Below are positions 17,667-61,809 of a stretch of 64,000 nt of DNA, in pieces. Every line of letters starts with the position of its first letter. Within the stretch, counting starts at the first letter, position 1. Source of the stretch: an uncultured Bacteroidales bacterium (lineage in GTDB: Bacteria; Bacteroidota; Bacteroidia; Bacteroidales; Paludibacteraceae); the NCBI GenBank assembly GCA_937901025.1, contig CALCGR010000151.1, positions 2,714 to 66,713 of the forward strand, given 5' to 3'. The translations under genes and the position numbers were made by a program. Below the pieces are notes generated by a model, which saw only the letters and a list, made by a program, of their open reading frames with translations, made no database searches and was not told the origin of the DNA.

Positions 17667-17676
17667 CAGCCGAAAT

Positions 17677-22835: not shown

Positions 22836-22929
22836 CAGCGTGAAATCGACAATATATATTTGTGCAAGCAAATAGATATTAAAAACAACAATTAACCCTT
22901 TTTATTAACCCTTAAAATTTCATTACCAA

Positions 22930-31843: not shown

Positions 31844-31883
31844 GATACTAATTTATCCAAAATCGTTGCAATAGTGCGCATTA

Positions 31884-31915
31884 TTTGCATAAGTGCAAAA
31901 GATTTTGTAACTTTG
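31884..31915 (+). promoter_or_regulatory. Promoter P9 for the 17-gene CAZyme run
   Basis: TTTG 31884-31887, 20 nt, TAACTTTG 31908-31915. The upstream gtgcgcatt motif is also seen at about 455-470. Confidence 0.65.
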
Positions 31916-31947
31916 TAGCCAAATTAGAAAAACATTCAATTTATAAT

Positions 31948-39442: not shown

Positions 39443-41841
39443 AAAATTTAACTTACATTTTGTTAGGATTGATTTTGACCGCTTGCGGCCAATCGACAGC
39501 GAACTCTGTGAACACTAATCATCCCTATCGCGATGTAGCCACGGCTGCTATTAAGGCTTACTACTATCAGCGTTCGGGCGTAGCCATTGAAAAACCCTAT
39601 GCCGGCGTTTATGCTCGTGAGGCAGGTCACCCGGATACACACGTATTGGTACACCCTTCCGCTGCTACCGACTCCCGTCCTGCGGGAACGGTTATCTCCA
39701 GCCCATATGGTTGGTACGATGCCGGAGATTATGGTAAGTATATCGTCAATTCCGCCTACACGGTGGGAATGATGATGATGGCATATCAGTGGCAACCGGA
39801 GTATTACAAGTGTCTCGATGTGAATATCCCCGAGAGCGGGAGCAAGGTACCCGACTTACTCGAGGAGGTGATGTTCAACCTCAAATGGATGCAAACGATG
39901 CAAGACGAGGACGGAGGTGTGTATCATAAACTGACTACACCGACGTTTGAGAGTTTTATCAAACCTACTGAGTGTAAGCAGACACGCTATGTGGTGATGA
40001 AAGCGACGCCCGCTACCCTTGATTTTGCAGCCTCGATGGCTATGGCTGCCCGTATATATGCTCCGTTCCCCGAATATAAAAACTTCTGCTCTACTGCCCT
40101 TAAACAAGCGCGTCATGCTTGGGAATGGGCTGTGGCTCACCCCGAGACGTACTATGACCAAGCCGGTATGGCAAAACGGTTTGAACCCGAAATCAAAACC
40201 GGTGGCTATGGTGATCATAACTGTTCTGACGAGTTCTTCTGGGCCGCCACCGAACTATGGCTGGCTACCGGAGATAAACAGTTTGAGGAGGCGATGCACC
40301 AATATGAACCAACCTCTTTCACATTGCCTTCGTGGGCTAATGTGGCAGGCATAGCTATGTATGAGTGCATAGATGAATACAAGGACCCGTTCTTGGATTA
40401 TATCAAGTCTTGTCCACTTGAATACGGACACGGACTGAAAGATTTCTATTGGGGTTGCAACGGGGAAGCGTGTGCAGGCAAGGGAGCGGCTATGCTCTTG
40501 GCTTATCGGCTCACCGGTGAAGAGAAATACTTGCATAGTGCTGAACAGACTGCCGATTGGTTGTTGGGTAATAACCCAACCGGTTACTGTTTTATCACCG
40601 GTTTTGGTGAGAAACAAGTTATGCATCCGCACCATCGTCTCAGTGCTTCTGACGATGTGGAAGCACCTATCCCGGGTTGGATGGTGGGCGGACCTAATCC
40701 GCTCAAACAGGACGGCTGCGACTATTTTAATGTTGAGCGCGCTAAATGCTATGCCGACCTTACGGAGGCATACGCTTGCAATGAGATAGCCATCAACTGG
40801 AATGCCACTTTGATTCCGCTGATGGCAGGGTTGGATAAGATACACACCACTCCTAAGCAAGCTCTCATCGAGCGTTTGCGTTTCCTCTCCCGTCGCGGTA
40901 TCATGTTCGGTCACCAAGACGATCCCTTCTACGGCACTACGTGGCAATGGGAAAAAGGTCGCTCGGATACCTACGAACTGGTGGGTGACTACCCGGGCGT
41001 GATGGGCTTCGATTTAGGCGGACTGGAAGAAAAACATGATAAGAACCTCGATAGCGTACCCTTTGAGTGGATGCGTGAGGAGGCTGTCCATCATGTTAAA
41101 AACGGCGGTGTGGTTACTTTCTCTTGGCACCCGCGCAACCCGCGTACCGGTAGCAATGCGTGGGATGTGAGTGATCCTACGACGGTTCTCAATATCCTAC
41201 CGGGGGGCGAACAACACGAACTATTCTTGGAGTGGATGAATGATGTGGCTACGTTCCTTGAGACATTGGTAGATGAGAACGGACAACCGATTCCGTTTAT
41301 CCTCCGTCCGTGGCACGAGTATAACGGGTCGTGGTTCTGGTGGGGCTGGAAAAACTGCACCAACGAACAATGGCTTGCTCTTTGGAATATGTTCCAAGAT
41401 TATATGAACAAGCGTATGCCGACGAATATCGTTTGGTGCTGCTCACCTAACCTCGACGGACATTTCACAACCGAGTATTTGGAAAGTCGCTTCCCTGAAC
41501 AAGGACGCGTGGATATCCTTGGCTATGATACCTACCAATGGGGTACAGAAAAAGATTTCGTTTCGCAGTCCAAGGCAGATATAAAGTTCCTCTATGCTTA
41601 TGCACAGGAGCATAATATGCTTTTCACCATCAGCGAGTGTGGTATTCAGAACTCCCCCGTAGCCGACTGGTGGACGCGCGTGTTCTTGCCTTTGACCGAA
41701 GGCAAGGAGGTTTGCTATTTCCTTCCTTGGCGTAATTGGCACAAAGAACATTTCGGCGCGGCCAAAGGCCTCAAAACCGAAAAAGACTTTATCAAACTCT
41801 ATAAAAATCCTAGAACATTATTCCTAAAAGACCTACAATAA
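39439..41841 (+). CDS. GH9-like endoglucanase domain fused to a C-terminal GH26 domain (lipoprotein)
   Basis: Lipobox LILTAC. GH9-like [33 protein letters not shown]26: [38 protein letters not shown]. Confidence 0.75.
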
Positions 41842-41842
41842 T

Positions 41843-41870
41843 CACTAACCACTAAGCACTAACCACTAAT
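41843..41870. repeat. Micro-array family E copy E1 (heptamer CACTAAC x4), intergenic
   Basis: cactaac cactaag cactaac cactaat fills nearly the whole 31-nt gap between two genes. Confidence 0.85.
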
Positions 41871-41872: not shown

Positions 41873-43216
41873 ATGGCAACTATTAAAGAAAAACTCGCTT
41901 ATGCAATGGGCGATGCTGCTGCGGGCGGTATCACGTGGAAGATTATGTCCACTGTTTTTCCCTTGTTTTTTACCAATGTCTTCGGACTTAGTTTTGCGGA
42001 TGCCGCTATCCTTATGTTGTTAGCGCGTCTGTTTGACGTAGTAACCGACCCGATTATGGGTTCACTTGCTGACCGAACACAGTCTAAATGGGGCACGTAT
42101 CGTCCGTGGCTTATCTTTGGAGCTATTCCTTACGGACTGATTTTTGCGCTTTTACTTTTTACACCGGACCTCGGTCCTGTCGGTAAGCGCATTTATGCCT
42201 ATACGCTTTATTTGGCGATGATGGCTGTTTATACGGCAGTGAATGTGCCTTATGGTTCGTTGCTTGGTGTGATGACCGAAGATGATAACGAGAAAAACCA
42301 GTTCTCGTCCTATCGTATGGTGGGAGCTTATTTGATGGGATTTATCACCCTCATTATCTTCCCATACGTTCAGAAATGGATAGGCGGTACGCAGGCTCAC
42401 CAATATGCCGTTATCGGTGCTGTCTTTGGAGGATTGGCAGCTTTGATGACATTGCTTTGCGGTTTGATGACCAAGGAGCGCATTAAACCCAAACGCGCCG
42501 AGAAATACGATTGGAAACAGTTTGTGGATCTGGTTAAGAATAAACCGTGGCTCTACCTTACCGCGACAGGTATCTGCACTAATTTCTTTAATGGTTTCCG
42601 TTATGCTGCTGCGGGATATATGTTCACTTATTGCCTCCATGGCGATGTTACTTTTGGACAGTTTATCATTAACTTCACCGTCTTTATGGCAATCGGTGAG
42701 GTCACGTGTATGATCTTTGGCGGTATATCTCCTGTCTTCACTAAATGGGTTGGCAGTAAAAAGAAAGCTTTTATCATTGCCGCCTTCATTTGCGCTGTGA
42801 CTTCGGTTATATTCTTCTTTATCCCGATGGATCCTGCCTATATGTGGCTTATGATTCTGGTGGTTATCCTCACCTCCGTGGGTGTGGGTATCTATTCGCC
42901 TCTGCTGTGGTCAATGTATGCCGATGTGGCAGACTATGCTACTGAGACCTTCGGAACCTCCTCGACGGGACTGATCTTCTCGTCGGGTACGATGGCTCAG
43001 AAATTAGGCGGCGCTATCTCGGGTTCGCTCATTGCGGCTCTATTAGGTTGGGCAGGTTTAGTGTCCTCTCAGGATATGGTTACGGGTGAAACGATTGTGA
43101 CCATCACGAACGAATCGGCTGTGCAGATGATGATTTGGTGTCTGTTCTCACTGATTCCGGCAGGTATAGCCTTGATTATGGCTTGGCTGGTGTATCGATT
43201 CCCGATTAAGAAATAG
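41873..43216 (+). CDS. GPH-family cation symporter (second copy)
   Basis: YAMGDAAAGG.., ARLFDVVTDPIMGSLADR and about 12 TM segments. Precedes the epimerase, as in the mannobiose pathway. Confidence 0.85.
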   Translation: MATIKEKLAYAMGDAAAGGITWKIMSTVFPLFFTNVFGLSFADAAILMLLARLFDVVTDPIMGSLADRTQSKWGTYRPWLIFGAIPYGLIFALLLFTPDLGPVGKRIYAYTLYLAMMAVYTAVNVPYGSLLGVMTEDDNEKNQFSSYRMVGAYLMGFITLIIFPYVQKWIGGTQAHQYAVIGAVFGGLAALMTLLCGLMTKERIKPKRAEKYDWKQFVDLVKNKPWLYLTATGICTNFFNGFRYAAAGYMFTYCLHGDVTFGQFIINFTVFMAIGEVTCMIFGGISPVFTKWVGSKKKAFIIAAFICAVTSVIFFFIPMDPAYMWLMILVVILTSVGVGIYSPLLWSMYADVADYATETFGTSSTGLIFSSGTMAQKLGGAISGSLIAALLGWAGLVSSQDMVTGETIVTITNESAVQMMIWCLFSLIPAGIALIMAWLVYRFPIKK

Positions 43217-43222
43217 TTTAAA

Positions 43223-43246
43223 GTGGAGAGTTTAGAGTTTAGAGAC
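43223..43246. repeat. Micro-array family B copy B1 (reverse orientation) covering the epimerase start
   Basis: gtg gagagtt tagagtt tagagac, read as M-E-S-L-E-F-R-D. Confidence 0.8.
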
Positions 43247-44338
43247 ATATTAACGACGAATATCCTGCCTTATTGGCTAAGGTTGCAAGACCCTGTCCAT
43301 GGCGGGTTCTACGGGCAAGTGCTCGCAGATGAGACAGTTGTCAAAGAGGCAAACCGCGGAGCCATCCTCTATGGTCGTATCCTCTGGACTTTCTCTGCCG
43401 CCTATCGCGCGTTAGGAAATAAGGAGTATCTGGTGGCAGCCGAGAATGCGAAGGACTATATCCTCAACCATTTTATTGACCGTCAGCAGGGTGGGGTATA
43501 TTGGGAACTCGACTATTTAGGCAACCCTGTTAATGACCGCAAACAGTTCTATGCTTTGGGTTTTGTCCTTTATGGACTTACGGAGTATATCCTCGCCACC
43601 GGCGACGCTGCGGTCCTGCCTTATGCCATTGACCTCTATCGCTGTATTGAGCAACACGCTTGGGACCCGCAATCGGGTGGTTATATCGAGGCTACTCAAC
43701 GCAATTGGAGTGCTATCTCCGATTATCGCTTGAGCGAAAAAGATGTCAATGCACCTAAGTCGCAAAACACCCACCTGCATATCCTCGAACCCTATACAAA
43801 CCTCTATCGTGTTTGGCCACAAGAGGAGGTCAAACAGTCGATTCTGCGTCTTATCGAGGTCTTCAAAAACCATATCATTCAGCCTTCCGGTCATCTCGGT
43901 CTATTCTTTGATATGCAGTGGCACCCCTCATCTCTAAACTCTCAACTCTCAACTCTCAACTATTCTTGCGGTCACGACATCGAGTTCTCGTGGCTATTGG
44001 ATGAGGCTTGCGAGGTGATTGGTGTGAACGAGGACGAGACCGTTCAACGTGTGGCACAAGCAGCCAAAGAGGGTCTCTTGTCCGACGGACGAATGGAAGG
44101 TACGTGGTGGGAACAGTGTGAAACCATCATTGGTTATACGAATATCTATCGCCGTTTTGGAGGCGAGGAAAACAAACGAATAGCTGAGCGTTGTTGGGAA
44201 GCGACCAAAAAATATTTCATCGATTACGAACATGGCGAGTGGTGGGAGTATCCCTACTCCCAAGCAGACAAGGCCGGCTTTTGGAAATGTCCATATCATA
44301 ATTCACGATTATGCATACACTTATTATCTTTTTGTTAA
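43223..44338 (+). CDS. Cellobiose 2-epimerase / N-acylglucosamine 2-epimerase family
   Basis: ILPYWL.., GGVYWELDYLGNPVNDRKQFYALGFVLYGLTEY, NTHLHILEPYTNLY, GHDIEFSWLL. The only possible start before the conserved ILPYW is GTG at 43223. Confidence 0.8.
   Translation: MESLEFRDILTTNILPYWLRLQDPVHGGFYGQVLADETVVKEANRGAILYGRILWTFSAAYRALGNKEYLVAAENAKDYILNHFIDRQQGGVYWELDYLGNPVNDRKQFYALGFVLYGLTEYILATGDAAVLPYAIDLYRCIEQHAWDPQSGGYIEATQRNWSAISDYRLSEKDVNAPKSQNTHLHILEPYTNLYRVWPQEEVKQSILRLIEVFKNHIIQPSGHLGLFFDMQWHPSSLNSQLSTLNYSCGHDIEFSWLLDEACEVIGVNEDETVQRVAQAAKEGLLSDGRMEGTWWEQCETIIGYTNIYRRFGGEENKRIAERCWEATKKYFIDYEHGEWWEYPYSQADKAGFWKCPYHNSRLCIHLLSFC
43931..43964. repeat. Micro-array family B copy B2 (heptamer CTCTCAA), in frame in the epimerase
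   Basis: tctctaaactctcaactctcaactctcaactatt, read as SLNSQLSTLNY. Confidence 0.9.
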
Positions 44339-46763: not shown

Positions 46764-48328
46764 TGCAACACAATCATTTTCTACATCGTGCATCGTGCAT
46801 TGTGAATTGTGCACTTGTACTTTCACTTTCCACTTTGAGTGCCCAAAATCCCTATCTCCCTTTGTGGGAGTTTATTCCGGATGGTGAACCCTATGTGTTT
46901 GCCGATCCTGACTGTCCGGGCAAGGAACGTGTCTATATCTATGGCTCGCACGACATAGCCCAAACGGAGTATTGCGGACGTAACCAAGTGGTGTGGTCTG
47001 CACCGGTGGAAGACCTTACCCAATGGCGGTACGAGGGAGTGGCTTTTCAGTCTATTCTCGATGCTAATGGCAAGATGCTCAACGAGAGCGGTATAGGAGA
47101 TATGCTCTATGCCCCCGACATCACTTACAAAGACGGTCTCTACTATTTCTACCCCAATAACCAGACTTGGGGACATCGTAACGCACAAGTGGCTGTCGGA
47201 ACTCGTCCGGGCGGACCTTTCCATGTCATCAACTGGAACGACACTATCCCTTATAACTGCGATGGCGAACTGGGCTTTGATCCTGCTGTCTTTGTAGATG
47301 ACGACGGGCGCGTATATGCCTACTGGGGGTATATCCATAGTGAGATGGCGGAGTTAGACCCCGAAAAGATGTACTGCGTCAAAGCCGGTACGCCCATCTA
47401 TCGCGACCGGATCTCTTCCATCGAAGACTCTACCGGCATCTATCGTTTCCTCGAAGCATCCAGTATGCGGAAGATAGAGGACAAGTACGTGCTTATCTTC
47501 TCGCGTTTTACTGCCGATGGCGAGAGCGGACTGTCTGTGAGCAACTACACACTCGCTTATTGCTATAGTGATCAACCTTTGGGACCGTGGACTTATGGCG
47601 GTACTATCATCGATGCCCGTGCTCCCGGTGTAGATGATGAAGGCAATGCTATTCCTACCGCTAATCCGTTTGGTAACACGCACGGCGGGCTTTGTCTTAT
47701 CAACGGACAATGGTGGATCTTCTACCACCGGCAGACGGGACTCAATGAGTTCAGTCGGCAAGCTATGGTAGCACCCGTCCAAGTCAGTGTGGAGAAAGGT
47801 AAGGGAGGCAAAGTGATTATCAGTCAAGCCGAAGTGACCTCCGAAGGTTTCCGTACCGAGGGATTGGATCCATTGGTTAAGACTCCGGCAGCACTGATGT
47901 GCTATTTCACGCACCCCAAGAAAGCCGAACAGCAATTCCCTAATTTTACCCTGTACGGCAGTTATGTGGAACCCAAACAAAACGGTATTCCCGTAGTGAA
48001 TAACACTTCCGGAAGTACCATAGGCTATAAGTATTTCAATTTCGATGCGCTTGCAAAGGCAAAGAAAGTAAATTTTCACCTCAACCTCGTTCCTAAAACC
48101 GAAGGGCAGATCACTGTCCTTGTCGGCGGTCCTACCCCCAAACAAGGCGGCAAAGAGATTGGACGGATAAAAATCACTTCACAATCCACTAACTATGCAT
48201 CGTGCATTGTGAACCGTGCACTCTCCACGCTCAAAGGTAAACAGCCTTTGTTCTTTGTTTTCTCCTCCGAAACCGAAGGACAATCGATTTGCGACTTCTA
48301 CGATTTCCAATTTGAAATCATAAAATAA
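46763..48328 (+). CDS. GH43 family glycosidase with C-terminal beta-sandwich region
   Basis: NPYLPLWEFIPDGEPYVFADPD..RVYIYGSHD, LYAPDITYKDGLYYFY. The signal peptide is encoded by arrays C2/D1. Confidence 0.75.
   Translation: MQHNHFLHRASCIVNCALVLSLSTLSAQNPYLPLWEFIPDGEPYVFADPDCPGKERVYIYGSHDIAQTEYCGRNQVVWSAPVEDLTQWRYEGVAFQSILDANGKMLNESGIGDMLYAPDITYKDGLYYFYPNNQTWGHRNAQVAVGTRPGGPFHVINWNDTIPYNCDGELGFDPAVFVDDDGRVYAYWGYIHSEMAELDPEKMYCVKAGTPIYRDRISSIEDSTGIYRFLEASSMRKIEDKYVLIFSRFTADGESGLSVSNYTLAYCYSDQPLGPWTYGGTIIDARAPGVDDEGNAIPTANPFGNTHGGLCLINGQWWIFYHRQTGLNEFSRQAMVAPVQVSVEKGKGGKVIISQAEVTSEGFRTEGLDPLVKTPAALMCYFTHPKKAEQQFPNFTLYGSYVEPKQNGIPVVNNTSGSTIGYKYFNFDALAKAKKVNFHLNLVPKTEGQITVLVGGPTPKQGGKEIGRIKITSQSTNYASCIVNRALSTLKGKQPLFFVFSSETEGQSICDFYDFQFEIIK
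46784..46846. repeat. Graded heptamer array C2/D1 encoding the signal peptide
   Basis: catcgtg catcgtg cattgtg aattgtg cacttgt actttca ctttcca ctttgag tgcccaa, read as HRASCIVNCALVLSLSTLSAQ. Confidence 0.9.
48198..48232. repeat. Micro-array family C copy C3, in frame near the GH43 C-terminus
   Basis: catcgtg cattgtg aaccgtg cactctc cacgctc, read as ASCIVNRALSTL. Confidence 0.85.
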
Positions 48329-48338: not shown

Positions 48339-49937
48339 ATGAACAATTCTATGAAACACTCTCAACATTTTACATCGTGCATTATGAATTGTGCACTTGT
48401 ACTTGTCACTCTTGTTCTTGCTTCCTGTCAACCCTCTGACCCGACTCTCGTCACCACCCATTATGGTAAGGTGCAGGGTTTTATGGAGGATAATATCCGC
48501 ATTTTCTTGGGTGTTCCTTATGCTCAAGCACCCGTCGGCGAACTGCGCTGGCGTGAGGCGTTGGCACCGCTACCCTATGATACGGTACTGCAAGCTAACC
48601 ATTTTGGTGATGACGCTATCGTTCCTTATGTTTATTGGGATATGCATTATCGTGGTAAACAACAATCCGAAGACTGCCTTTACCTTAATATATGGGCACC
48701 TAACACGCGTAAGTCCAACCTGCCCGTTCTCGTGTATTTCAACGGTGGCGGTTTGATAACCGGCAGTGGTAGCGAAACACGCTATGACGGTAAGTCGCTT
48801 GCTGAGCAAGGAATCATCATGATTACCGCTAATTATCGCGAGAACATCTTCGGGTTCTTTGCTCATCCCGAACTCACGGCTCGCTCGGCTGCGCACACCT
48901 CCGGTAACCAAGGGCTGACCGACCAAGCACAAGCGATTAAATGGGTATATGAAAACATCGCTAAATTCGGAGGCGATCCCAAACGCATTACTATCTCCGG
49001 CGAATCGGCAGGCTCTTTCTCCGTATCTATGCAGATGTGCTCTCCCTTGTCCAAGAACCTGTTGGCAGGCGGTATCGGTTCCAGCGGATCCGTGCTGATT
49101 CCGGATTACTACTACACGCTTGAGCAGGCCGAACAAATGGGCGTAAAGCGCGTACAAGAGGTCGGCAAGACCATTGACGAGTTACTGACTATGGACGCTT
49201 ACGAACTGGCAAAGTTGATGCCTCTTACGGATATGCCCAAACCGACCATTGACGGGTATTTCCTTACCGATAAACCGGAGAATATCTATGCCAATAACGA
49301 GCAGGCGCAGATTCCTCTTATGGCAGGGTGGAACCGCAACGAAGATAATCCGCATTGGAAAATCAAAACCAAACCGACTTTAGACAAACTGCGTCACTCC
49401 GTTTTCCCATGGTGGGACGACAAGATTTTTGCTATTTTTGACCTTTATGGCATTCACACCGATGCTGATGTCTTCACCCGCAAGTCGGTCGATATGTGCT
49501 CTGACCTCTTCACGGGAAACTGCACATGGCGTTGGTGCGACATCCACCGTCAGACGGGGCACACGGTATATCGTTACAAGTTCATGCCCGACCGCCCATT
49601 GGATGGTCAGCCGTACGACTCCCTCGCCGGTGCTTGCCACTCGGCAGATATTGAGTACTCGCTGGGTAACTTGCATCAGAACACGTTCTATAATTGGAAG
49701 GAACGCGACCATCAACTGTCTAAACTCTTCTCTTACTACACCGTTAATTTCATTCGCTGTGGTAACCCGAATGGCGAACAATACCATGATACCATGGTGA
49801 TTAACGGCAAGCAGGTAGAGGAGTGGATGCCTCTCACCGAAGAGGGCGAGACAATGATACTCGACTACGAGCCTTATCTCAATGCTGACCAAGCTATCGA
49901 AGAACGCTATCATAAACTAAACAACTTATTTAAATAA
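48339..49937 (+). CDS. Type-B carboxylesterase/lipase family protein (lipoprotein)
   Basis: Nucleophile elbow ITISGESAGSFSV, oxyanion region FNGGGLITGSG, lipobox LVLASC. Confidence 0.85.
   Translation: MNNSMKHSQHFTSCIMNCALVLVTLVLASCQPSDPTLVTTHYGKVQGFMEDNIRIFLGVPYAQAPVGELRWREALAPLPYDTVLQANHFGDDAIVPYVYWDMHYRGKQQSEDCLYLNIWAPNTRKSNLPVLVYFNGGGLITGSGSETRYDGKSLAEQGIIMITANYRENIFGFFAHPELTARSAAHTSGNQGLTDQAQAIKWVYENIAKFGGDPKRITISGESAGSFSVSMQMCSPLSKNLLAGGIGSSGSVLIPDYYYTLEQAEQMGVKRVQEVGKTIDELLTMDAYELAKLMPLTDMPKPTIDGYFLTDKPENIYANNEQAQIPLMAGWNRNEDNPHWKIKTKPTLDKLRHSVFPWWDDKIFAIFDLYGIHTDADVFTRKSVDMCSDLFTGNCTWRWCDIHRQTGHTVYRYKFMPDRPLDGQPYDSLAGACHSADIEYSLGNLHQNTFYNWKERDHQLSKLFSYYTVNFIRCGNPNGEQYHDTMVINGKQVEEWMPLTEEGETMILDYEPYLNADQAIEERYHKLNNLFK
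48373..48421. repeat. Graded heptamer array C4 encoding the signal peptide
   Basis: catcgtg cattatg aattgtg cacttgt acttgtc actcttg ttcttgc. 34 nt match 46782-46822 with one mismatch once one unit is removed. Confidence 0.9.
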
Positions 49938-49939: not shown

Positions 49940-51073
49940 ATGATTATGAAAAAAATCCTTTTTATCGTACTTTCACTTTCACTTTCCACACTAAGTGCCC
50001 AAGAAAAACCGCTCCTTTGCCCGACTCCCCCTATGGGTTGGTCGTCTTGGAACACGTTTGCTTGCGACATTAACGAAGACCTTATTAAAGCCGTTGCCGA
50101 TGAGATGGTTGCTACCGGACTCAAAGATGCCGGTTATCTCTATGTCAACATAGACGACTGTTGGCACGGACAACGCGATGCCGACGGGTTCATTCAACCC
50201 GACCCAGAACGTTTTCCTTCGGGTATGAAAGCGTTAGCCGACTATGTGCACAGTAAAGGACTGAAGTTAGGTATCTACTCCGATGCCGGAACAGAGACCT
50301 GCGGCGGTCGCCCCGGCAGTTTAGGTCACGAATATCAGGACGCTCTCCAATACGCTCGTTGGGGTATTGATTACCTCAAATATGACTGGTGCAATACGGA
50401 GAATGTGAATCCCAAGGGTGCCTATACGCTGATGTCAAAAGCCCTTCGCGCTACAGGACGGGATATCGTCTTCTCGCTGTGCGAGTGGGGAGATAACAAA
50501 GCCTATGAGTGGGCAGAACCTATTGGTCACCTTTGGCGTACTACAGGGGATGTGGCCTGTCTGTTCGACGGCATAGTAGACCACGGCACGTGGAAATCCT
50601 TAGGTGTGATGCCTATTGTGGATATCAACGAGAAACTGCGCCAATATGCAGGACCCAACCACTGGAACGATCCCGATATGTTGGAGGTCGGCAATGGTAT
50701 GACCCCCGCAGAAGACCGTACCCATTTCTCCCTCTGGTGTATGATGGCTGCACCGCTGATCTTAGGTAACGACATTCGTTCTATGAGTGCCGAGACCCAG
50801 GCGCTCCTCACCAATAAAGCCCTTATCGCCATCGACCAGGACCCGTTGGGCGTACAAGGTTGGCGTGAGAAGACCGAGGACGGGGTAGAGTATTGGATTA
50901 AGCCGTTGCAAAATGATAAAGAGGCTCGCTGCATCGTCAATCGTGGCAACGAACCTAAGATTATTCAACTCGACCAAAAGATTAAACCGATTCTTCCTGT
51001 CTGCAAGAAAGCACAAAAGAAATTTACCCTTGCCCCGCATGATGTAATCGTTTATGTAGAGGATAAACAATGA
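49940..51073 (+). CDS. GH27 alpha-galactosidase
   Basis: PPMGWSSWNTFACDINE, YVNIDDCW, YLKYDWC, LCEWG, PDMLEVGN. Confidence 0.9.
   Translation: MIMKKILFIVLSLSLSTLSAQEKPLLCPTPPMGWSSWNTFACDINEDLIKAVADEMVATGLKDAGYLYVNIDDCWHGQRDADGFIQPDPERFPSGMKALADYVHSKGLKLGIYSDAGTETCGGRPGSLGHEYQDALQYARWGIDYLKYDWCNTENVNPKGAYTLMSKALRATGRDIVFSLCEWGDNKAYEWAEPIGHLWRTTGDVACLFDGIVDHGTWKSLGVMPIVDINEKLRQYAGPNHWNDPDMLEVGNGMTPAEDRTHFSLWCMMAAPLILGNDIRSMSAETQALLTNKALIAIDQDPLGVQGWREKTEDGVEYWIKPLQNDKEARCIVNRGNEPKIIQLDQKIKPILPVCKKAQKKFTLAPHDVIVYVEDKQ
49967..50002. repeat. Array D2 encoding the signal-peptide C-region
   Basis: gtactttcactttcactttccacactaagtgcccaa (VLSLSLSTLSAQ). Compare 46817-46846, gtactttcactttccactttgagtgcccaa (VLSLSTLSAQ). 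Confidence 0.9.
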
Positions 51074-53016
51074 CCCTACTCATTGCTCTGACCACATTAT
51101 TACTCAATGCCGATTGGCGTTTCCATTTGGGTAACGCTGCCGATCCACAAAAGGACTTCGGTTGCGGAACGGAGTATTTCAATTACCTTACCAAAGCGGC
51201 GAGTATTCATAACGAAGGACCCTATGTCCCTTCCTTTAATGACTCCGCTTGGCAGGTGGTACAGATTCCTCACGATTGGGCAACGACCCTGCCTCACGCG
51301 CCCGAAGCCAGCCATAGCCACGGTTACCAAACCATCGGTTATGCCTATCCCGAACATAGTGTAGGGTGGTATCGCAAGATGATTACGCTAGACACGGTGG
51401 ATTATACAATTCCTCATCGCCTTATGTTTGAGGGAATTTTCCGCGATGCGCGCGTGTGGGTCAATGGGTTCTATGTAGGACATAACGAGAGCGGTTACCT
51501 TGGTGCTTCTTATACGATTACCGACTATCTGCACCCGGGCGAAAACCTTATTTGTGTGCGCGTGGATGCAACCCTACAAGAGGGTTGGTTCTACGAAGGT
51601 GCAGGCATCTATCGCAATGTCTATCTAACGATAGGCGACAGACAACAGGCAAAAAAATCTCTCAACTCTCAACTCTCAACTCTCAACTGCACACTTCACG
51701 GAGTGTGTCTCCACCAGGACCACGGCGGGGTAGGGATAGCCGTCCCGAAGGGACTGATGGAGTATCGACTCCGCAAACTCATGGCATTAGGCGTCAACGC
51801 CATTCGCACCGCCCACCATCCTGCCGCCCCCGACTTGTTGGACTTCTGCGACAGTCTCGGTATCTATATCATTGAGGAGAACCGGTTGATGGGCGCCTCC
51901 GAACAGGATTATCTAGCCCTCCAACGGATGATAGAGCGCGATCAGCATCATCCGTCGATCATCCTCTGGAGCATCGGCAATGAGGAATGGGCATTGGAGT
52001 GGAACGGGACAGGCGAACGTATTGCCCGGACGATGACAAACTGGTGTCACGCACTCGATAGGACACGGCTCGTCACCGTCGCCACCTCTTCCGGACCGGA
52101 TATCGTGCGCGGAGTGGATATAGCGGGTTTCAATTACATGAGGCAAAACGACCTTGCCGGTTTCCATGCGACTTATCCCGATCGACTCGCTATCATGACT
52201 GAGGAAACGACCGGCTGCGGTACGCGAGGCGTAGCCACATATAATGATGCTATTGAGAAGGGCTGGCAAAATGTGCTCGATAACGATTGGATACGAGGTA
52301 TCTTTTATTGGACGGGGTTTGACTATAAGGGTGAACCTAATCCTGCCCAATGGCCTTCGGTTAGCAGTTTGTTTGGTGTACTCGATCTGTGCGGGTTTAT
52401 GAAAGATGAAGCGTATTTCTTACAATCCGTTTGGACGGATAAACCGGTGTTACATATTCTTCCGCATTGGAACCTGACAGGACAAGAAGGGGATAGCGTC
52501 ACCGTGTGGGTATATTCGAATATGGACGAGGTTGAACTGCGTGTCAACGGCAAACGACTTGAACGTCAGCCGATGCCCAAGGTAGGACACCTCGAGTGGA
52601 AAACCATCTATCAACCCGGTTCTGTCGAAGCCATCGGTTATAAGAACGGACGCATCGCTAAACGAGAAAAAGTCTATACCGCCGGTCCGGCAACGCAAGT
52701 AAGTCTTGATACGGTCACCTATAGCGGTACCACAATTATGGATATCACTTTGCTTGATAAGAAAGGGCATTTCTGCCCAACCGCTTGCGACTCTGTTCAA
52801 GTGGAGTGGACACAACCCGTCCGCATCTTAGGCTACCATAACGGCAACCCTACTGCCCACCTCCAAATGCCGGACACTAAACACCAAACACTAAACACTA
52901 TAACAATCCCTGCCTTTAATGGCCATGCACAAATCATTTATGAAAATCTTCAATCTTCAATTAGCCCATCGGGTGATTATTCTAACAATATTCTTAGCGC
53001 TCGTATCATGCGCTAA
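51070..53016 (+). CDS. GH2 family glycosidase apparently lacking the Ig-like second domain (possibly degenerate)
   Basis: N-terminal sugar-binding domain (NADWRFHLG, WYRKM, VWVNGFYVGHNESGY, GIYRNVYL) runs within about 23 aa into the TIM barrel (GVCLHQDHGGVG, NAIRTAHHP, WSIGNEE, MTEETTGCGTRG). The last 77 nt overlap the next gene. Confidence 0.65.
   Translation: MTLLIALTTLLLNADWRFHLGNAADPQKDFGCGTEYFNYLTKAASIHNEGPYVPSFNDSAWQVVQIPHDWATTLPHAPEASHSHGYQTIGYAYPEHSVGWYRKMITLDTVDYTIPHRLMFEGIFRDARVWVNGFYVGHNESGYLGASYTITDYLHPGENLICVRVDATLQEGWFYEGAGIYRNVYLTIGDRQQAKKSLNSQLSTLNCTLHGVCLHQDHGGVGIAVPKGLMEYRLRKLMALGVNAIRTAHHPAAPDLLDFCDSLGIYIIEENRLMGASEQDYLALQRMIERDQHHPSIILWSIGNEEWALEWNGTGERIARTMTNWCHALDRTRLVTVATSSGPDIVRGVDIAGFNYMRQNDLAGFHATYPDRLAIMTEETTGCGTRGVATYNDAIEKGWQNVLDNDWIRGIFYWTGFDYKGEPNPAQWPSVSSLFGVLDLCGFMKDEAYFLQSVWTDKPVLHILPHWNLTGQEGDSVTVWVYSNMDEVELRVNGKRLERQPMPKVGHLEWKTIYQPGSVEAIGYKNGRIAKREKVYTAGPATQVSLDTVTYSGTTIMDITLLDKKGHFCPTACDSVQVEWTQPVRILGYHNGNPTAHLQMPDTKHQTLNTITIPAFNGHAQIIYENLQSSISPSGDYSNNILSARIMR
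51658..51687. repeat. Micro-array family B copy B3 (4 perfect CTCTCAA units) at the GH2 domain junction
   Basis: tct ctcaactctcaactctcaactctcaac, read as SLNSQLSTLN. Confidence 0.9.
52874..52901. repeat. Micro-array family E copy E2, in frame near the GH2 C-terminus
   Basis: acactaa acaccaa acactaa acactat, read as DTKHQTLNTI. Confidence 0.85.
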
Positions 53017-55360
53017 GAACGAAGTCACAATTCGCGTTACTAACCCGACTGAGAATGGCCCTAGAATAGTTCGTTTACAAGCCGTGAATGACAACACGAT
53101 TCGTGTTACTTCTACCGCAGAAAATAAACTCCGCGACCGTAAGAGTCTTGTTGTAAAATGCACGATGCACGATGCACGATGCACAGTTCACAATATCGGT
53201 GACACCGTTACCTTGCAAACCGCCACTATGGCGGTGAGCGTTGACCGCACCACCGGTCAAGTATGGGTCACTCGTCACGATGGTAAACTGCTACTCAAAG
53301 AGACAGTGGGTAGTCCTTATTTCACGCCTTATGAGTGTACACAAACGGACGTAAATAATAAAGATATCACTTATAACGGCTGGACGTATGCCGTTACGTT
53401 TGATAACCTCTATAACGAAGAAGGTCTTTTTGGCCTTGGTCAACACCAATCGGACGAATGGAACTGGAAAGGACGCGATGAGGAACTCTATCAGTATAAT
53501 ACGAAGGTTTCGCTCCCGATCATCTTCTCAACCGAAGGTTATGGTCTGATGTTCGACACCTACAGCCTCAGTCGTTGGGGTAATCCCGAACCCTATAAGG
53601 CATTGGAAGACTTGTTTGTAGTGGATACTGTGGCTCGTCGTATAGACGCGAAGACGATTGTTTACGAAGGCACCATCACACCGCATAAGACCGGTGAATA
53701 TCGATTCCTTCATTACTACTCCGGTTACCAACAACTCTTTATTGATGGGCAGCCTTTGAGCCCTACTATTTGGAGGACGGCTTGGAATCCGAATGAGCGT
53801 AAATATCGTTATTACATGGAAGAGGGATGTAATTATCATATCCGTCTTACGTGGCAACCCGATGGCGATGTAGCTTATTGCTCTCTTACCGCCCATGCGC
53901 CTGAGACACCTGAGACGCACCAACAACTACGGTTTTGGTCGGAGATGAACCCCAACCTCGACTACTATGTCTTTGCGGGCGAGAATATGGATAGTCTTAT
54001 TCACTCTTACCGTAAGCTCACAGGTAAAGCGACCCTCATGCCTGATTGGGTATTAGGCTACTGGCAGTCGCGTGAACGCTATAAGACCCAAGACGAAATC
54101 GTTGATGCTCTGCGCGGCTTCCATTCACGTAATCTGCCCATTGATAATATCGTCATGGACTGGAACTATTGGGAGCCTTCGCAATGGGGCGCTTTCACAT
54201 TTGAGGATTCTCGTTTCCCTAACCCGCAAGCCATGATTGATACCATTCATGCTTTGGGTGCTCATATAATGATCTCTTGCTGGCCTAAGTATTATCCGTT
54301 CACGGACCACTACCAAGAGATGTTTGCCAAAGGCTGGTTATATCCTCAATCGATTCGCGACTCGCTCATCGATTGGCTCGGGTTCCCGTATGCTTTCTAT
54401 GATGCCTACAATCCGAAAGCCGGCAGACTCTTTTTTGAACAACTATGGGAGCACCTTGGCACGATGGGTATTGACGCGTGGTGGATGGACGCTTCCGAAC
54501 CGAACATCAAAGACTGCACACCTATCGACTATCGCAAAGCCCTTTGCGGACCGACTTATCTCGGTTCATCGGACGAGTATTTTAATGCATATGCTTTGGT
54601 GAATGCGCAGTCTATATACGAAGGTTTGCAACGCAAAGGCGTACAGGATATTTTTCAACTCACTCGTAATGGTTTTCTTGGACAACAACGCTATTCCACC
54701 GCTACTTGGTCGGGCGATATCGGTACGCGTTGGGAAGACATGAAAGCGCAGATTACCGCCGGACAGAACTTCTCCGTGTCTGGTCTTCCATGGTGGAGTC
54801 AAGATATTGGTGGTTTCTCGGTAGAGAATCGTTATGCTGCGGCGCAATACGCTTTTGATGCTACCGGTATAGAGAATGCAGACCTTCAAGAGTGGCGCGA
54901 ACTCAATGTTCGTTGGCACCAATGGGGTGTGTTCACACCTATTTATCGTAGTCACGGACAGTTCCCCTATCGCGAGCCATGGAATATCGCTCCAGAAGGA
55001 CATCGCGCATACAAGGCAATAACTGCATGCCTCAACGAACGTTATAAACTGATGCCGTATCTAAAAGAGATGAATCGCCGTGTTAGCGAAGAGGATTACA
55101 CTATCATGCGACCTCTCGCTATGGACTATCCTACAGACCCCAAAGCTGTGAACTGCGGTTGGCAGTATATGTTTGGACCCGATATTATGGTTTGCCCGGT
55201 CTATAAGTATGGCGCTCGTGAGTGGAGCGTCTATTTTCCTGCCGGCACATGGTACGATTACTATACCGGAGAACTCGTTTCTAAGGGCAATGAGACACGT
55301 ATTGTTCCTGCCCCCTATGACCATAGCCCGATCTTTTTAAGAAATAAACAACAACTATAA
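52940..55360 (+). CDS. GH31 family glycosidase (alpha-xylosidase/alpha-glucosidase type, lipoprotein)
   Basis: Lipobox LALVSC. GIDAWWMDASEPN, TRNGFLGQQRYSTATWSGDI, PWWSQDIGGF, YRSHG. Start chosen at ATG 52940 (MKIFNLQL..). The ORF track starts at 52919. Confidence 0.8.
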   Translation: MKIFNLQLAHRVIILTIFLALVSCAKNEVTIRVTNPTENGPRIVRLQAVNDNTIRVTSTAENKLRDRKSLVVKCTMHDARCTVHNIGDTVTLQTATMAVSVDRTTGQVWVTRHDGKLLLKETVGSPYFTPYECTQTDVNNKDITYNGWTYAVTFDNLYNEEGLFGLGQHQSDEWNWKGRDEELYQYNTKVSLPIIFSTEGYGLMFDTYSLSRWGNPEPYKALEDLFVVDTVARRIDAKTIVYEGTITPHKTGEYRFLHYYSGYQQLFIDGQPLSPTIWRTAWNPNERKYRYYMEEGCNYHIRLTWQPDGDVAYCSLTAHAPETPETHQQLRFWSEMNPNLDYYVFAGENMDSLIHSYRKLTGKATLMPDWVLGYWQSRERYKTQDEIVDALRGFHSRNLPIDNIVMDWNYWEPSQWGAFTFEDSRFPNPQAMIDTIHALGAHIMISCWPKYYPFTDHYQEMFAKGWLYPQSIRDSLIDWLGFPYAFYDAYNPKAGRLFFEQLWEHLGTMGIDAWWMDASEPNIKDCTPIDYRKALCGPTYLGSSDEYFNAYALVNAQSIYEGLQRKGVQDIFQLTRNGFLGQQRYSTATWSGDIGTRWEDMKAQITAGQNFSVSGLPWWSQDIGGFSVENRYAAAQYAFDATGIENADLQEWRELNVRWHQWGVFTPIYRSHGQFPYREPWNIAPEGHRAYKAITACLNERYKLMPYLKEMNRRVSEEDYTIMRPLAMDYPTDPKAVNCGWQYMFGPDIMVCPVYKYGAREWSVYFPAGTWYDYYTGELVSKGNETRIVPAPYDHSPIFLRNKQQL
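52944..52965. repeat. Heptamer array (AATCTTC x2-3) at the GH31 start
   Basis: aaatctt caatctt caattag encodes the first residues KIFNLQL. The same bases are read in another frame as the GH2 tail. Confidence 0.7.
53161..53195. repeat. Micro-array family C copy C5 (reverse orientation), in frame in GH31
   Basis: cacgatg cacgatg cacgatg cacagtt cacaata, read as (M)HDARCTVHNI. Confidence 0.9.
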
Positions 55361-55383
55361 TTAACAATTAAAAATCAACTATT

Positions 55384-56487
55384 ATGAAAAAGCTTTTTAT
55401 TACTGCTTTAGCAGCACTGACACTAGTCGCTTGCGCCACCAAAGAAAACAATTTCAAGGTTCATCGTGGAACGAACCTCAGTCACTGGCTCTCTCAATCC
55501 GAAGTACGTGGAGAGGAACGTGCCAAACACATCCAAGAGGATGATATGGTTCGTCTCGAGTCCCTCGGGTTTGACTTTGTGCGTATCCCTATTGACGAAG
55601 TACAGATGTGGGACGAGGACGGCAATCAACTACCCGAAGCATGGGACTTACTCACCAACGGTATCGACCTTGCTATCAAGCACAACCTGCGTGTAGTTGT
55701 GGATCTGCACATCATTCGCTCACACTATTTCAATGCCGAAAACGAGGATGGTCAATCCGCCAATACCCTCTTTACTTCCGAGGCTTCGCAACAAAGGCTC
55801 ATCGACATGTGGTATGAACTGAGCGAGGTGCTACGCCACTATAGTGTAGATTCTGTGGCATACGAGTTCATGAACGAACCTGTAGCTCCTGAGCACGAAC
55901 AATGGAATCAACTGATTGCGAAGGTTCATAAAGCGTTGCGCGAAGTAGAGCCTCAACGGACACTCGTCATCGGTTCTAACTTATGGCAAGGAGTAGGGAC
56001 TTTTCAATATTTGAAGGTTCCCGAGAACGATAAGAACATCATCCTCTCTTTCCATTTCTATGAGCCGATGGTACTGACCCATTATAACACTTGGTGGAAT
56101 CCCATCCGTTTCTATACCGGTGACGTCCATTACCCGGGACAACTCATCTCTGACGAGGATTGGAATGCTTGTCCGGACGAGGTCAAACCAACCGTAGCCG
56201 ATTATCATCAAGAGTGGAACGAGGAAGTGCTCTATCAACGAATGAAACAGGCTATTGATGTGGCTGATTCGTTGGGTTTGCAACTCTTCTGTGGTGAATG
56301 GGGTGTTTATGAGAATGTCGATCGTGATTGGGCGTATGCTTGGACGCGCGATATGATTAAAGTTTTTAACCGCTTTAATGTGGCTTGGTGCACTTGGTGT
56401 TACGATGCCGATTTCGGCTTCTATGACCAGTTCAAAGAGGACTATAAAGATCGTGAACTTATCAATATCTTAATGGAAAAAGAATAA
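55384..56487 (+). CDS. GH5 family glycosidase (cellulase/mannanase type, lipoprotein)
   Basis: Lipobox [44 protein letters not shown]. Confidence 0.8.
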
Positions 56488-59732: not shown

Positions 59733-60302
59733 TTAGTCGCATAGGGAAAAGAGATCGGCACGAGGGTTGATGAGCATCACGGGAACCTGACTACGCGCGA
59801 TGGCGTGCCGTTCGGGCGGACCGAAAATCAGGTCGTCCAGCCCATATTCCCTACTCGCCGTCAAGATCAGCAGGTCGTTTTTCCATTCAGCTTGCCGCTC
59901 GACCGCCTCTTTGGATAAGTTAAAACTATTTTTCTTAGCCTGCAAGACGCGGTAGCGTATCGGTTCTCCGGTGCGCTGCTTGACCGCCTCTATATGGGTG
60001 ATAATCTTATCGAGGTTCTGCTTGGCCTTGGTACCATAATCGTTCGCCGGGAGCAACAATATCTCCGCTCCCGTCTTACGCGCCAGGTAGGTGCAGATCT
60101 CCGATTTATAAACCTCCTCTTCGAGGAAGGAGACGGGGACGAGGATATGGGAGTAGAGGGGTAGGGGAGTAGAGGAGTAGGGTAGATTCATTGTATCCGT
60201 GATGAACACATACGGACGACGCTCGTCGCGACACTCGTTGAGGTGCCGCTGGATAATCGACGAGCGATTCAGACAGTGAATATATCGTATATCCTCATCC
60301 AT
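59733..60302 (-). CDS. Universal stress protein (UspA) family
   Basis: HILVPVSF.., ..LILTASREYGLDDLIFGPPERHAIARSQVPVMLINP. An alternative start at 60191 (MNLPYSSTPL..) gives a typical 152-aa Usp. Array A4 follows that ATG. Confidence 0.7.
   Translation of the reverse strand: MDEDIRYIHCLNRSSIIQRHLNECRDERRPYVFITDTMNLPYSSTPLPLYSHILVPVSFLEEEVYKSEICTYLARKTGAEILLLPANDYGTKAKQNLDKIITHIEAVKQRTGEPIRYRVLQAKKNSFNLSKEAVERQAEWKNDLLILTASREYGLDDLIFGPPERHAIARSQVPVMLINPRADLFSLCD
60149..60185. repeat. Micro-array family A copy A4, in frame in the usp-like gene
   Basis: gggagtagaggggtaggggagtagaggagtagggtag. The minus-strand gene reads LPYSSTPLPLYS. Its 35-nt core is identical to A5. Confidence 0.9.
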
Positions 60303-61809
60303 GAAGGAACCGTTTCCATTTTCTAAGCAGTTGTTTCAGATATTCAAGGTGGCGCAACTGATGGTACTTTGTCCAACTAACGAAGGCCAAAAGTAAACCT
60401 TGGCAGATAAGACCTGCTACCACATAACCTATCCATCGGTCTTCGGGGTCTAAATCAAACCCTTCCGGTGCGATAAAAATATAACTGACACTCACCATCG
60501 TCATAAACAGGGCGGGGATAAGCGTTAACATATACCCATGCTCTTTCTTATGAGAATAGAGGTACAGCGTAGCAGCCCAAAGGATGAAGACGGAGATCGT
60601 TTGGTTGGTCCAAGAGAAATAGCGCCAAACAATATCGAAGTTAACAAACGCCATTCCAAATACAGCAGCGAACAACGGCAGCGCAATGAGAAGTCGATTG
60701 CGAATGGGTTTTTGGTTAAGGTGCAGGAAGTCCGCTACCGTCAATCGCGCACTGCGTAAGGCGGTATCACCCGAAGTGATAGGAGCAACCACGACACCTA
60801 AGACGGCTAAGAATCCTCCCACTTTGCCAAGCCAAGTCTTACTGATCTTATCCACTACCAATGCGGCAATGTTCTCTCCCGGGTGCTGCGCTGCAAACGC
60901 TTGCAGACCGTCAATACCATACACTCCGTGGATAGGGTCGGCAAAGAATGTGCCTGCGGCAGCCGCCCAGATAAGAGCTAAAATACCTTCCGCCACCATC
61001 GCTCCATAGAAGATCCAACGCCCTTGGCGCTCGTTGGTCAAACAACGTGCCATTAGCGGCGACTGCGTGCTATGGAAACCACTGATAGCACCACAAGCAA
61101 TACTGACGAACATCATGGGGAAGATTGGCATATCGTTGGTTTGACGGTTGTATAAGCCGTCGGTGATTTCCGGCATCTCCATACTATGCCAACCAAGCAT
61201 GATGACCATAATACCAATACCCATAAAGAGCAGCACTGCACCAAAAATAGGATAGAAACGTCCAATCAGTTTATCCACGGGCAGTAAGGTGGCTAAGGTA
61301 TAATACAAGAAGATGATACCTAACCAGATATACCACGAAGGTAGTGGGCACATGCCTTGTAATAGGGTGGCAGGTCCGGTCATGAACGTAGTCGTAAGCA
61401 GTACCAGCAGGACGAGAATGAAAATACGCACCACAAAACCTAACCCCGGGCCAATCTCATCCTTGACAATCTCCGGCATAGAAGCACCATTCTTGCGAAC
61501 GGATAACATTCCTGCCATATAATCGTGAACGCCACCACCAAAGATGGTTCCAAACACAATCCATAGGAAAGCTGCCGGACCAAAGAAAATACCCATGATG
61601 GCACCAAAGATAGGACCTAAACCCGCAATGTTCAAGAACTGAACAAGGAAAATACGCCAACCTGCCATCGGTACATAATCCACTCCGTCAGGATGCGCCA
61701 CGGCAGGCGTCTTGGCAACAGGATTGATTCCAAAGATTTTTTCTACCAACCTTCCATACAAAAAGAAGCCGGCAACAAGAAGAACAAGAGCTATAAGGAA
61801 TGTATACAT
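60295..61809 (-). CDS. cstA: Carbon starvation protein A family transporter
   Basis: Polytopic membrane protein. FGTIFGGGVHDYMAGMLSVR and ..FHSTQSPLMARC.. are typical of CstA. Confidence 0.85.
   Translation of the reverse strand: MYTFLIALVLLVAGFFLYGRLVEKIFGINPVAKTPAVAHPDGVDYVPMAGWRIFLVQFLNIAGLGPIFGAIMGIFFGPAAFLWIVFGTIFGGGVHDYMAGMLSVRKNGASMPEIVKDEIGPGLGFVVRIFILVLLVLLTTTFMTGPATLLQGMCPLPSWYIWLGIIFLYYTLATLLPVDKLIGRFYPIFGAVLLFMGIGIMVIMLGWHSMEMPEITDGLYNRQTNDMPIFPMMFVSIACGAISGFHSTQSPLMARCLTNERQGRWIFYGAMVAEGILALIWAAAAGTFFADPIHGVYGIDGLQAFAAQHPGENIAALVVDKISKTWLGKVGGFLAVLGVVVAPITSGDTALRSARLTVADFLHLNQKPIRNRLLIALPLFAAVFGMAFVNFDIVWRYFSWTNQTISVFILWAATLYLYSHKKEHGYMLTLIPALFMTMVSVSYIFIAPEGFDLDPEDRWIGYVVAGLICQGLLLAFVSWTKYHQLRHLEYLKQLLRKWKRFLHG

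Follow-up and report, generated by a model that had tools for sequence, protein, structure and literature searches.

How do nearly identical short tandem arrays come to lie, in frame, inside unrelated enzymes of one bacterium? The question is raised by a 64-kb stretch of DNA from an uncultured gut or rumen Bacteroidales bacterium of the Paludibacteraceae (contig CALCGR010000151.1, positions 2,714 to 66,713; hereafter the window, that is, the whole 64,000 nucleotides analysed). In this window, T(CTCTMAA)4CT arrays are located in frame inside the genes for a 2-epimerase, DapA and a GH2 glycosidase. M denotes the variable A/C at the fifth base of the unit, and the CTCTMAA arrays are referred to as family B. 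Family B is composed of lineage-wide short heptanucleotide tandem arrays of about 4.5 units and 29-34 nucleotides (nt), which belong to the bacterial long simple-sequence repeat (LSSR) or short tandemly repeated repetitive (STRR) type. The distribution of the arrays, together with the copying seen in sister families, makes it reasonably likely that family B is propagated by template switching or ectopic conversion, altered in situ at the level of the unit, and shaped by purifying selection against stops and frameshifts. The arrays and their host genes are as follows.

43931-43964, plus strand: family-B array in the 2-epimerase gene, tctctaaactctcaactctcaactctcaactatt; 43925-43964 when a degenerate unit is included (sequence, Tandem Repeats Finder (TRF), period scan, pattern search).
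62384-62417, minus strand: family-B array at dapA site 1, reverse complement tctctaaactctaaactctcaactctaaactatt (sequence, pattern search).
51657-51688, plus strand: family-B array in the GH2 gene, with four perfect CTCTCAA units at 51659-51686 (sequence, pattern search).
43212-43245, minus strand: fourth family-B copy, at the MFS/epimerase junction, plus strand AATAGTTTAAAGTGGAGAGTTTAGAGTTTAGAGA (pattern search, window self-comparison, orthologues).
43223-44338, plus strand: GlcNAc/cellobiose/mannobiose 2-epimerase family gene (Pfam GlcNAc_2-epim PF07221, orthologue alignment).
61791-62678, minus strand: dapA, 4-hydroxy-tetrahydrodipicolinate synthase (Pfam DHDPS, orthologues, structure comparison).
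51070-53016, plus strand: GH2 glycosidase of the short DUF4982 class without PF00703 (Pfam, orthologues).

The epimerase array is composed of a degenerate CCCTCAT, one CTCTAAA, three CTCTCAA and a final CT, followed by the native TAT codon for tyrosine. It encodes (HP)SSLNSQLSTLN(Y), with SLNSQLSTLN as the core. The four units of dapA site 1 carry A-A-C-A at the variable base and give SLNSKLSTLN(Y). The GH2 array gives SLNSQLSTLN again, in the linker that joins the N-terminal domain to the TIM barrel. The epimerase and dapA 34-mers are identical at 32 of 34 positions, and both mismatches concern the base of the unit that varies between A and C. These observations agree with the reading made earlier from the letters alone (the sequence-only reading), which had given the coordinates, sequences and 32/34 identity of the epimerase and dapA copies correctly and had also recognised the third copy, with its four perfect units, in GH2.

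Three family-B 34-mers in the window share a common unit phase, length and both ends. TRF assigns the family-B arrays a period of 7, 4.3-5.0 copies and 89-100% matches, in agreement with our own period scan. When a 23-nt pattern of three CTCTMAA units was searched with up to 3 mismatches allowed, four loci in the window matched, whereas 100 dinucleotide shuffles gave an expectation of 0.00. The window contains 10 period-7 arrays, compared with 0-4 for each of the other periods from 4 to 12, and a period-7 excess is also present in the relatives L120-L123 and in 833 kb from other genomes. Nine of the approximately 10 heptamer arrays fall into three unit families (CTCTMAA with four arrays, GCACGAT with three and CACTAAM with two), accompanied by AATCTTC and by 8-mer arrays termed family A. 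A chance origin of the family-B arrays is excluded, and the earlier claim that the copies are non-randomly related holds. A sequencing or assembly artefact was ruled out as well, the dapA array being identical, and in frame, in three independent assemblies.

The reading of the arrays is constrained by stop codons. On the opposite strands, (GTTGAGA)n and (TTTAGAG)n, every frame meets TGA or TAG before three units have passed, so that a long array can code only when read as CTCTMAA. With the phase used in dapA, C is obligatory in the third unit, since CTC TAA contains a stop, and the observed A-A-C-A has A wherever it is allowed. Moreover, a 7-nt unit read in one orientation automatically gives an identical seven-residue cycle, LNS(Q/K)LST, as which the in-gene arrays are presumably translated. 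The constant SLNS(Q/K)LSTLN reading emphasised earlier is therefore correct for all three translations, but only the shared reading phase of the three in-gene copies is informative, with a chance of about 1 in 9. The proposed restriction to a single coding orientation is sustained by the antisense stops in all frames but does not extend to the fourth copy at 43212-43245, of which 2.5 units are read the other way round.

This fourth copy, which the sequence-only reading did not notice, is 32/34 identical to the plus strand of the dapA copy at 62384-62417. It covers the TAG stop of the MFS gene, the GTG start of the epimerase and epimerase codons 2-7 (ESLEFR), in an orientation opposite to that of the epimerase gene. 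The copy is kept in three other species (L125, L126 and L127) and is thus older than the internal dapA and epimerase copies; we regard it as a candidate donor copy. The 43212-43245 and 43931-43964 copies also form inverted repeats in one transcript, for which a duplex of -38 kcal/mol is predicted, shuffled sequences giving -15 +/- 3. This pairing is not conserved, as L125 and L126 have no internal epimerase array. The family-B sense strand itself shows no self-complementarity and no terminal inverted repeats, and its predicted fold is 0.0 kcal/mol; the unit array of 30-34 nt is a non-palindromic direct tandem. A structured RNA was ruled out, with no Rfam match in the window and no predicted structure for the array sense RNA.

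The behaviour of the array sites is revealed by orthologues. In relatives diverged by 10-25%, the same protein sites contain either no array or arrays built from different units of 7, 8 or 16 nt, and indels of at least 15 nt between the window and its congeners are mostly arrays of these unit lengths. The ligA gene likewise has one site with a different array family in relatives. The states of dapA site 1 are listed below.

Window, L120 and L121 (two strains, 98% DNA identity): (CTCTAAA)-type array, identical in all three.
L122: (ATCAACA)-type array.
L123: (CAATCTT)4.
L124: (CAATCTT)n-AGCCCATCGGGC-(CAATCTT)n.

DapA relatives of 70-97% identity carry 7-residue-periodic, repeat-coded peptides at the same two sites, encoded by other units (ITNHKSQI, IFNLQSSI, INNQQSAI), and distant Paludibacteraceae DapA proteins have an ordinary helix, VVERIHRLYEELE, at the array site. 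At site 1 the window DapA is only 2 residues longer than the solved DHDPS structure PDB 3pud. In its AlphaFold model, residues S87-N96 make up the C-terminal half of helix alpha-3 together with the turn after it, with a predicted local distance difference test score (pLDDT) of ~88-90. As judged from this model, the dapA array replaces the structural helix alpha-3 with a net gain of 2 residues, rather than inserting 10-11 residues.

Among epimerase orthologues without the array, the closest (L126) has WKGMSNAYSCGHD, and its site reads W-KGMSNA-YSCGHD, compared with W-HPSSLNSQLSTLN-YSCGHD in the window. Thirty-nine nt stand where the native sequence had 18, so that the site is longer by a net 21 nt, or 3 units. 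Neither a target-site duplication nor a clean interruption was found at this site when the window was compared with the array-less L126 and L125. The same position is occupied in L127 by a (CTCTCCA)-type array. The array residues are modelled as coil just ahead of the GHDIE helix, with pLDDT below 50 at 238-244. A second epimerase site, the loop WWEYP...DKAGFW, shows four different states in four genomes. The 97% identical epimerase P0241 differs from the window protein in only three respects:

P0241 against the window epimerase: Q241K in the family-B array (a C/A unit switch), an 11-residue family-A array at site 2, and one ordinary substitution.

In GH2, the array replaces linker sequence. 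Related arrays are present at the same site in P0246 and P0248-P0250, and a 16-nt array is found there instead in the closer relatives P0244, P0245 and L123. The GH2 linker of the clade (residues ~187-207) is almost entirely repeat-coded, P0247 having about six tandem IGDRRQA seven-residue motifs. The array as the scar of a recent loss of the GH2 immunoglobulin-like domain PF00703 was ruled out, the short class lacking this domain being old and widespread.

Taken with the structural models, these comparisons indicate that family-B arrays overwrite indel-tolerant surface segments, namely helix alpha-3 of DapA, a loop of the epimerase and the inter-domain linker of GH2. A simple gain of 10-11 residues, as had been supposed, does not describe any of the three. 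The array-less epimerase and dapA orthologues lack the peptide (KGMSNA in L126, the helix in distant DapA), in line with the sequence-only reading; LNSQLSTLN is therefore not ancestral, a conserved ancestral peptide being ruled out by both the array-less and the distant orthologues, and no sharing of the peptide without repeat DNA was seen among them. Across the aligned sequences, the arrays appear as the fastest-changing parts of their host genes, and every change seen is in frame. No frame-shifting tract-length variant is present among the orthologue and strain alleles compared. Between strains, in-frame length variation was met in the 8-mer family A, not in family B; no unit-number polymorphism of family B was encountered, the dapA array being the same in the window, L120 and L121 and the epimerase array of P0241 showing only its C/A switch.

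Direct evidence for copying between loci comes from two sister families, whose features are located as follows.

62097-62131, minus strand: irregular 8-mer array of family A at dapA site 2, sense ACCCTACTCCTCTACTCCCCTACCCCTCTACTCCC, plus strand GGGAGTAGAGGGGTAGGGGAGTAGAGGAGTAGGGT (window self-comparison).
52941-52975, plus strand: composite element of AATCTTC units and the AGCCCATCGGG core, at the GH2 C-terminus / GH31 start.
Window 52964, L124 dapA site 1 at ~10260-10330, and L125 epimerase site 2 at ~9980-10030: loci of the AGCCCATCGGG core.
L125 14203-14270 and 15505-15575: AGCCCATCGGG-core loci at two gene starts, the genes beginning MKIFNSPSGVQS.

The dapA site 2 array is identical at 35/35 positions to 60149-60183 in a usp-like gene; it is read in one frame in dapA (PTPLLPYPSTP) and in another in usp (LPYSSTPLPLYS). 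The usp copy is kept in the strain L120 and in the species L123. Site 2 of dapA has another sequence in L120, a strain of 98% DNA identity, and no array in L123. The family-A pair is a recent ectopic copy made at the DNA level, regardless of reading frame. In the other family, (CAATCTT)n units are joined to a non-repetitive, partly palindromic core, AGCCCATCGGG(C/T), at five loci, with a minimum shared core of 10-12 nt (GCCCATCGGG). This family has been copied between non-homologous loci, again at the DNA level.

For family B itself the evidence for copying is indirect and weaker than for the sister families. In metagenomes, the exact 34-mer was encountered complete with both ends in at least 19 unrelated contexts, largely from rumen-type samples judging by contig names. 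In the cross-phylum sample described below, the end combination of the window 34-mers has a joint frequency of ~0.4%, with a 5' T at phase 0 in 15/117 arrays and ATT after AACT in 4/56 (among the matches listed). The sequence-only reading had described the copies as a discrete element with non-array flanks, including ..TATT on the 3' side. The three copies with both ends and the metagenome contexts support that reading in part. The TATT does not: in the epimerase it is the native tyrosine codon, present in array-less and distant orthologues, and the next base, and L122 dapA has AAG TAT TGC beside its different array. TATT is therefore not cargo of a mobile unit, and the shared 3' end of the family-B copies is either a coincidence or a microhomology landing site.

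Under the proposed template switching or ectopic conversion, new copies would be made from existing arrays during replication or by short-patch conversion, with no transposase, and might land on microhomology such as TATT. Once in place, the arrays would be altered by substitution at the level of the unit, by homogenisation and by gaining or losing sequence in frame. Selection would purge the outcomes with stop codons or frameshifts, which would leave a fixed orientation and require every third unit to carry C. As for the copies inside genes, they are probably passengers, either neutral or slightly deleterious.

To place the heptamer in a wider context, one genome per GTDB species was scanned for (CTCTMAA)4. 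More than 119 loci were found, almost all in metagenome-assembled genomes (MAGs), and the counts are lower bounds; the figures in this paragraph and the next hold among the matches listed. The hosts include gut and rumen Bacteroidales, Planctomycetota, Verrucomicrobiota, Acidobacteriota, Cyanobacteria, Chloroflexota and Fibrobacterota. CTCTMAA arrays are thus a widespread background in many phyla and not, as the earlier reading had it, a family private to the source genome. A sense open frame of at least 600 nt runs through 57 of 133 arrays, an antisense one through 0. At least 26 of 97 arrays lie inside long open reading frames (ORFs), and three of the four family-B copies do so in the window. 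In addition, 21 of 97 arrays are followed within ~28 nt by the sense ATG of an ORF of at least 450 nt, 19 of them within 15 nt; the controls give 4 in antisense and 9% at random positions. The leader copies may, given their predicted properties, serve as structure-free, G-less translation-initiation leaders.

Perfect arrays measure 29-34 nt in 82 of 120 cases, with a sharp drop at 35 nt, and other period-7 arrays show a shoulder at 4-4.5 units. The 3' end has the phase ...MAACT in 54 of 104 arrays, and the 5' ends are variable. The length ceiling and the end phase are not ascertainment effects, and unbiased slippage predicts neither. Neighbouring arrays in the scanned genomes have related units of the form AACTNTC. 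Aligning the copies does not define element ends, contrary to the earlier expectation: no conserved ends exist across the flanks of 117 arrays, and an all-against-all comparison of the 14-nt flanks of 116 arrays matched only flanks of orthologous pairs or flanks in which the repeat runs on in degenerate form. The sole exception is the pair L009/L047, which has a common irregular junction.

Arrays in leader position are also found in the window itself, at 8395-8425, 41836-41869 and 55359-55384, directly upstream of the ATG codons at 8439, 41873 and 55384. The intergenic site of the 41836 array is occupied by a TTCCTTA array in L125 and by nothing in L127.

Several observations weigh against propagation of family B by template switching or ectopic conversion. 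Between near-identical strains (window, L120 and L121 for dapA), no gain of a family-B array was seen, and the GH2 copy is old and common to other species, so that it could have grown in place. The native TATT of the epimerase leaves coincidence as an explanation of the shared end, and flanks are unconserved across the cross-phylum sample. The occurrence of the heptamer in Planctomycetota, Verrucomicrobiota, Cyanobacteria and other phyla, the length ceiling and the ...AACT end are features that neither simple template switching nor slippage predicts, which hints at biased mutation or a dedicated process. Furthermore, nearly all data are derived from MAGs, and translation of the arrays is read from intact frames.

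Some of these points favour independent microsatellite growth, in which each array would expand by slippage from a local seed and the likeness between arrays would reflect a lineage-wide mutational or selective preference for the unit. The wide occurrence of the unit and the generally unconserved flanks fit such growth, as do the native 3' boundary and the net gain of exactly 3 units in the epimerase, the unit-level changes in situ (Q241K in P0241, CTCTCCA in L127) and the AACA pattern of dapA, which is what stop avoidance would force on an A-rich array. Slippage nevertheless cannot yield the irregular 35/35 family-A pair or the unique GCCCATCGGG core at five loci. It also does not account for three window 34-mers with a common phase, length and both ends, nor for orthologous sites that switch among 7-, 8- and 16-nt families, and single 7-nt steps would frameshift dapA. 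We consider it unlikely. A further rival is that of contingency (phase-variation) tracts, in which gain or loss of one unit, 7 not being a multiple of 3, would toggle enzymes off and on. Such arrays would be expected in ORFs and by start codons, where they are indeed located, and bet-hedging is plausible for polysaccharide-utilisation enzymes. But dapA is a housekeeping gene for lysine and peptidoglycan precursors with an identical array in three strains, all orthologue variants are in frame, and the arrays have only ~4 units, often broken by A/C variants, which renders phase variation very improbable.

A non-autonomous ~34-nt mobile element, resembling a miniature inverted-repeat transposable element (MITE) or a repetitive extragenic palindromic (REP) sequence and served by a trans-acting transposase, an HUH endonuclease, or a reverse transcriptase or primase making the array, would agree with the narrow length and its cliff at 35 nt, with the preferred 3' phase and with the recurrence of the 34-mer form in unrelated contexts. 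The patchy presence of CTCTMAA across phyla and the strong sense-strand bias even in untranslated leaders point in the same direction. Against it, terminal inverted repeats and target-site duplications are absent, native sequence is replaced rather than cleanly interrupted, the 5' ends vary, and Pfam and window-ORF searches found no transposase, integrase or reverse transcriptase among the window genes. To our knowledge, no enzyme makes such heptamer arrays. A mobile element of this kind is rather doubtful. Another conceivable origin is a dedicated, horizontally spread synthesis-and-patch process, which would lay ~30-34 nt with a fixed template end at DNA breaks or stalled forks, for example by a reverse transcriptase, primase-polymerase or telomerase-like activity with a 7-nt template. 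If true, it would explain the heptamer in distant phyla, the length ceiling, the ...AACT end and the replacement of native sequence at hot spots, including those in essential genes; we judge it distinctly improbable. The least probable reading, which we rate as extremely unlikely, is that of a selected peptide module, an amphipathic-helix LNSQLST heptad recruited for protein function with the DNA likeness being secondary. The leucines at i and i+4, the modelled helix in DapA and the single phase of the three window copies are consistent with it. In contrast, the array is disordered in the epimerase model, close orthologues carry unrelated peptides or nothing, the same DNA stands untranslated in leaders and in opposite orientation, and a sister family is read in different frames.

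Compared with known systems, family B most closely resembles the LSSR/STRR arrays. Heptanucleotide LSSRs include the GGGAATC arrays of Xanthomonas and Nostoc, which prefer four units, lie between co-oriented ORFs and differ at the same loci between species (PMC4692102). The TAACTGA arrays of Beggiatoaceae, Cyanobacteria and Bacteroidetes (PMC4679880) are a further example, alongside the survey of Mrazek et al. 2007 as summarised in the same paper. Family B shares with LSSR/STRR arrays, including the cyanobacterial STRR, the tandem 7-nt units, the period-7 excess, the length of about four units, the many copies per genome, the location of some copies between co-oriented ORFs and just upstream of starts (43212, 8395, 41836 and 55359 among the period-7 arrays of the window), the turnover of locus sequence between species and the patchy phylogeny. 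Those arrays are reported mainly as intergenic and under-represented in coding DNA; here three of the four family-B copies in the window are located inside conserved enzymes, although leader and junction copies exist as well. The family-B sense unit lacks G, so that no G-quadruplex is possible.

For the coding aspect, the closest analogue is the Rickettsia palindromic element (RPE; Ogata et al. 2000, 2002, as reviewed in PMC10969869). RPEs likewise place dispersed repeat DNA in frame in unrelated housekeeping genes, at fold-compatible sites and with no apparent element-encoded function. They are palindromes of ~100-150 bp with a conserved peptide, whereas family B forms direct arrays of ~30 nt without inverted symmetry, outside the RPE definition in both size and palindrome; moreover, native residues are replaced here and several array families alternate at one site. 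The contingency simple-sequence repeats of Haemophilus, Neisseria and Campylobacter are similar in being short tandem tracts, with a unit that is not a multiple of three, in ORFs or near starts; they differ in that here no frameshifted alleles were seen, a housekeeping gene is among the hosts, and the tracts are short and interrupted. REP sequences, bacterial interspersed mosaic elements (BIMEs) and MITEs are also tiny dispersed non-coding repeats that need host or trans functions and often lie at operon junctions. Family B, unlike REP/BIME sequences and MITEs, has no hairpin, terminal inverted repeats or target duplications, no REP-associated tyrosine transposase (RAYT) or other transposase seen in the window, and a tandem interior.

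A literature search on in-gene heptamer arrays in Bacteroidales or Prevotella found nothing specific, and we know of no description of inter-locus copying or of family switching at one site for LSSR/STRR arrays. What is new here is the coding context, the overwriting of native segments, the alternation of families at one site and the direct evidence for inter-locus copying. Heptanucleotide arrays are the commonest long microsatellites in bacteria. The present clade offers an unusually clear natural experiment, in which the arrays lie in conserved enzymes and no event may disturb the reading frame. Alleles of one site that are empty, occupied or differently occupied among close relatives, together with direct gene-to-gene copies, make the birth, copying and turnover of arrays testable, as well as how a helix of a TIM-barrel enzyme tolerates rewriting by repeat DNA and whether G-less leader arrays have a part in the translation initiation of Shine-Dalgarno-poor Bacteroidota. 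In addition, the arrays make up much of the orthologue length variation in these MAGs and can mislead alignment, gene calling and strain typing.

Repeat DNA is also read as protein elsewhere in the window and its relatives. Tandem arrays of CATCGTG, ACTTTC and AATCTTC at 46772-46846, 48354-48404, 49969-50002 and 52919-53000 encode part of the N-terminal signal peptides of several secreted glycosidases and esterases, and neighbouring genes share 84-85% DNA identity in these stretches. Tandem 16-nt arrays of GGTCTTTCAGCRAAGC (L123 18950-19020; L127 ~13460-13500) encode peptides of the GLSAKRSFSEA type in GH2, epimerase and other genes. A further in-frame insert in relatives, the hairpin-like CTCACCTCCCCTTCGGGGGGAGGCTGGGAGGGGGC, is found in a GH9/GH26 gene (L127 ~7750, aligned to window ~41029).

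The window as a whole contains a hemicellulose utilisation locus plus housekeeping genes. A ~48-nt motif (TTTGC.TATAT ... GTA..TTTGCAG) is present in eight copies upstream of genes, at the positions below, and may correspond to the Bacteroidota -33/-7 promoter consensus (TTTG / TAnnTTTG), which it resembles.

491-538, 1329-1376, 7794-7841 and 12783-12830: copies 1-4 of the ~48-nt motif.
17628-17675, 19271-19318, 22797-22844 and 31877-31924: copies 5-8 of the ~48-nt motif.

Longer repeats are present as well. The ORF 8439-10100, which has no Pfam match, contains a 147-nt tandem repeat at 8982-9422 (2.4-3 copies, 65-77% identity), and the ORF 1501-6771 encodes 1756 residues with no Pfam match at E <= 1e-5. 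An intergenic 41-nt tandem repeat of 2.5 copies is located at 17676-17775, upstream of the HipA-like kinase gene at 18285-19238.

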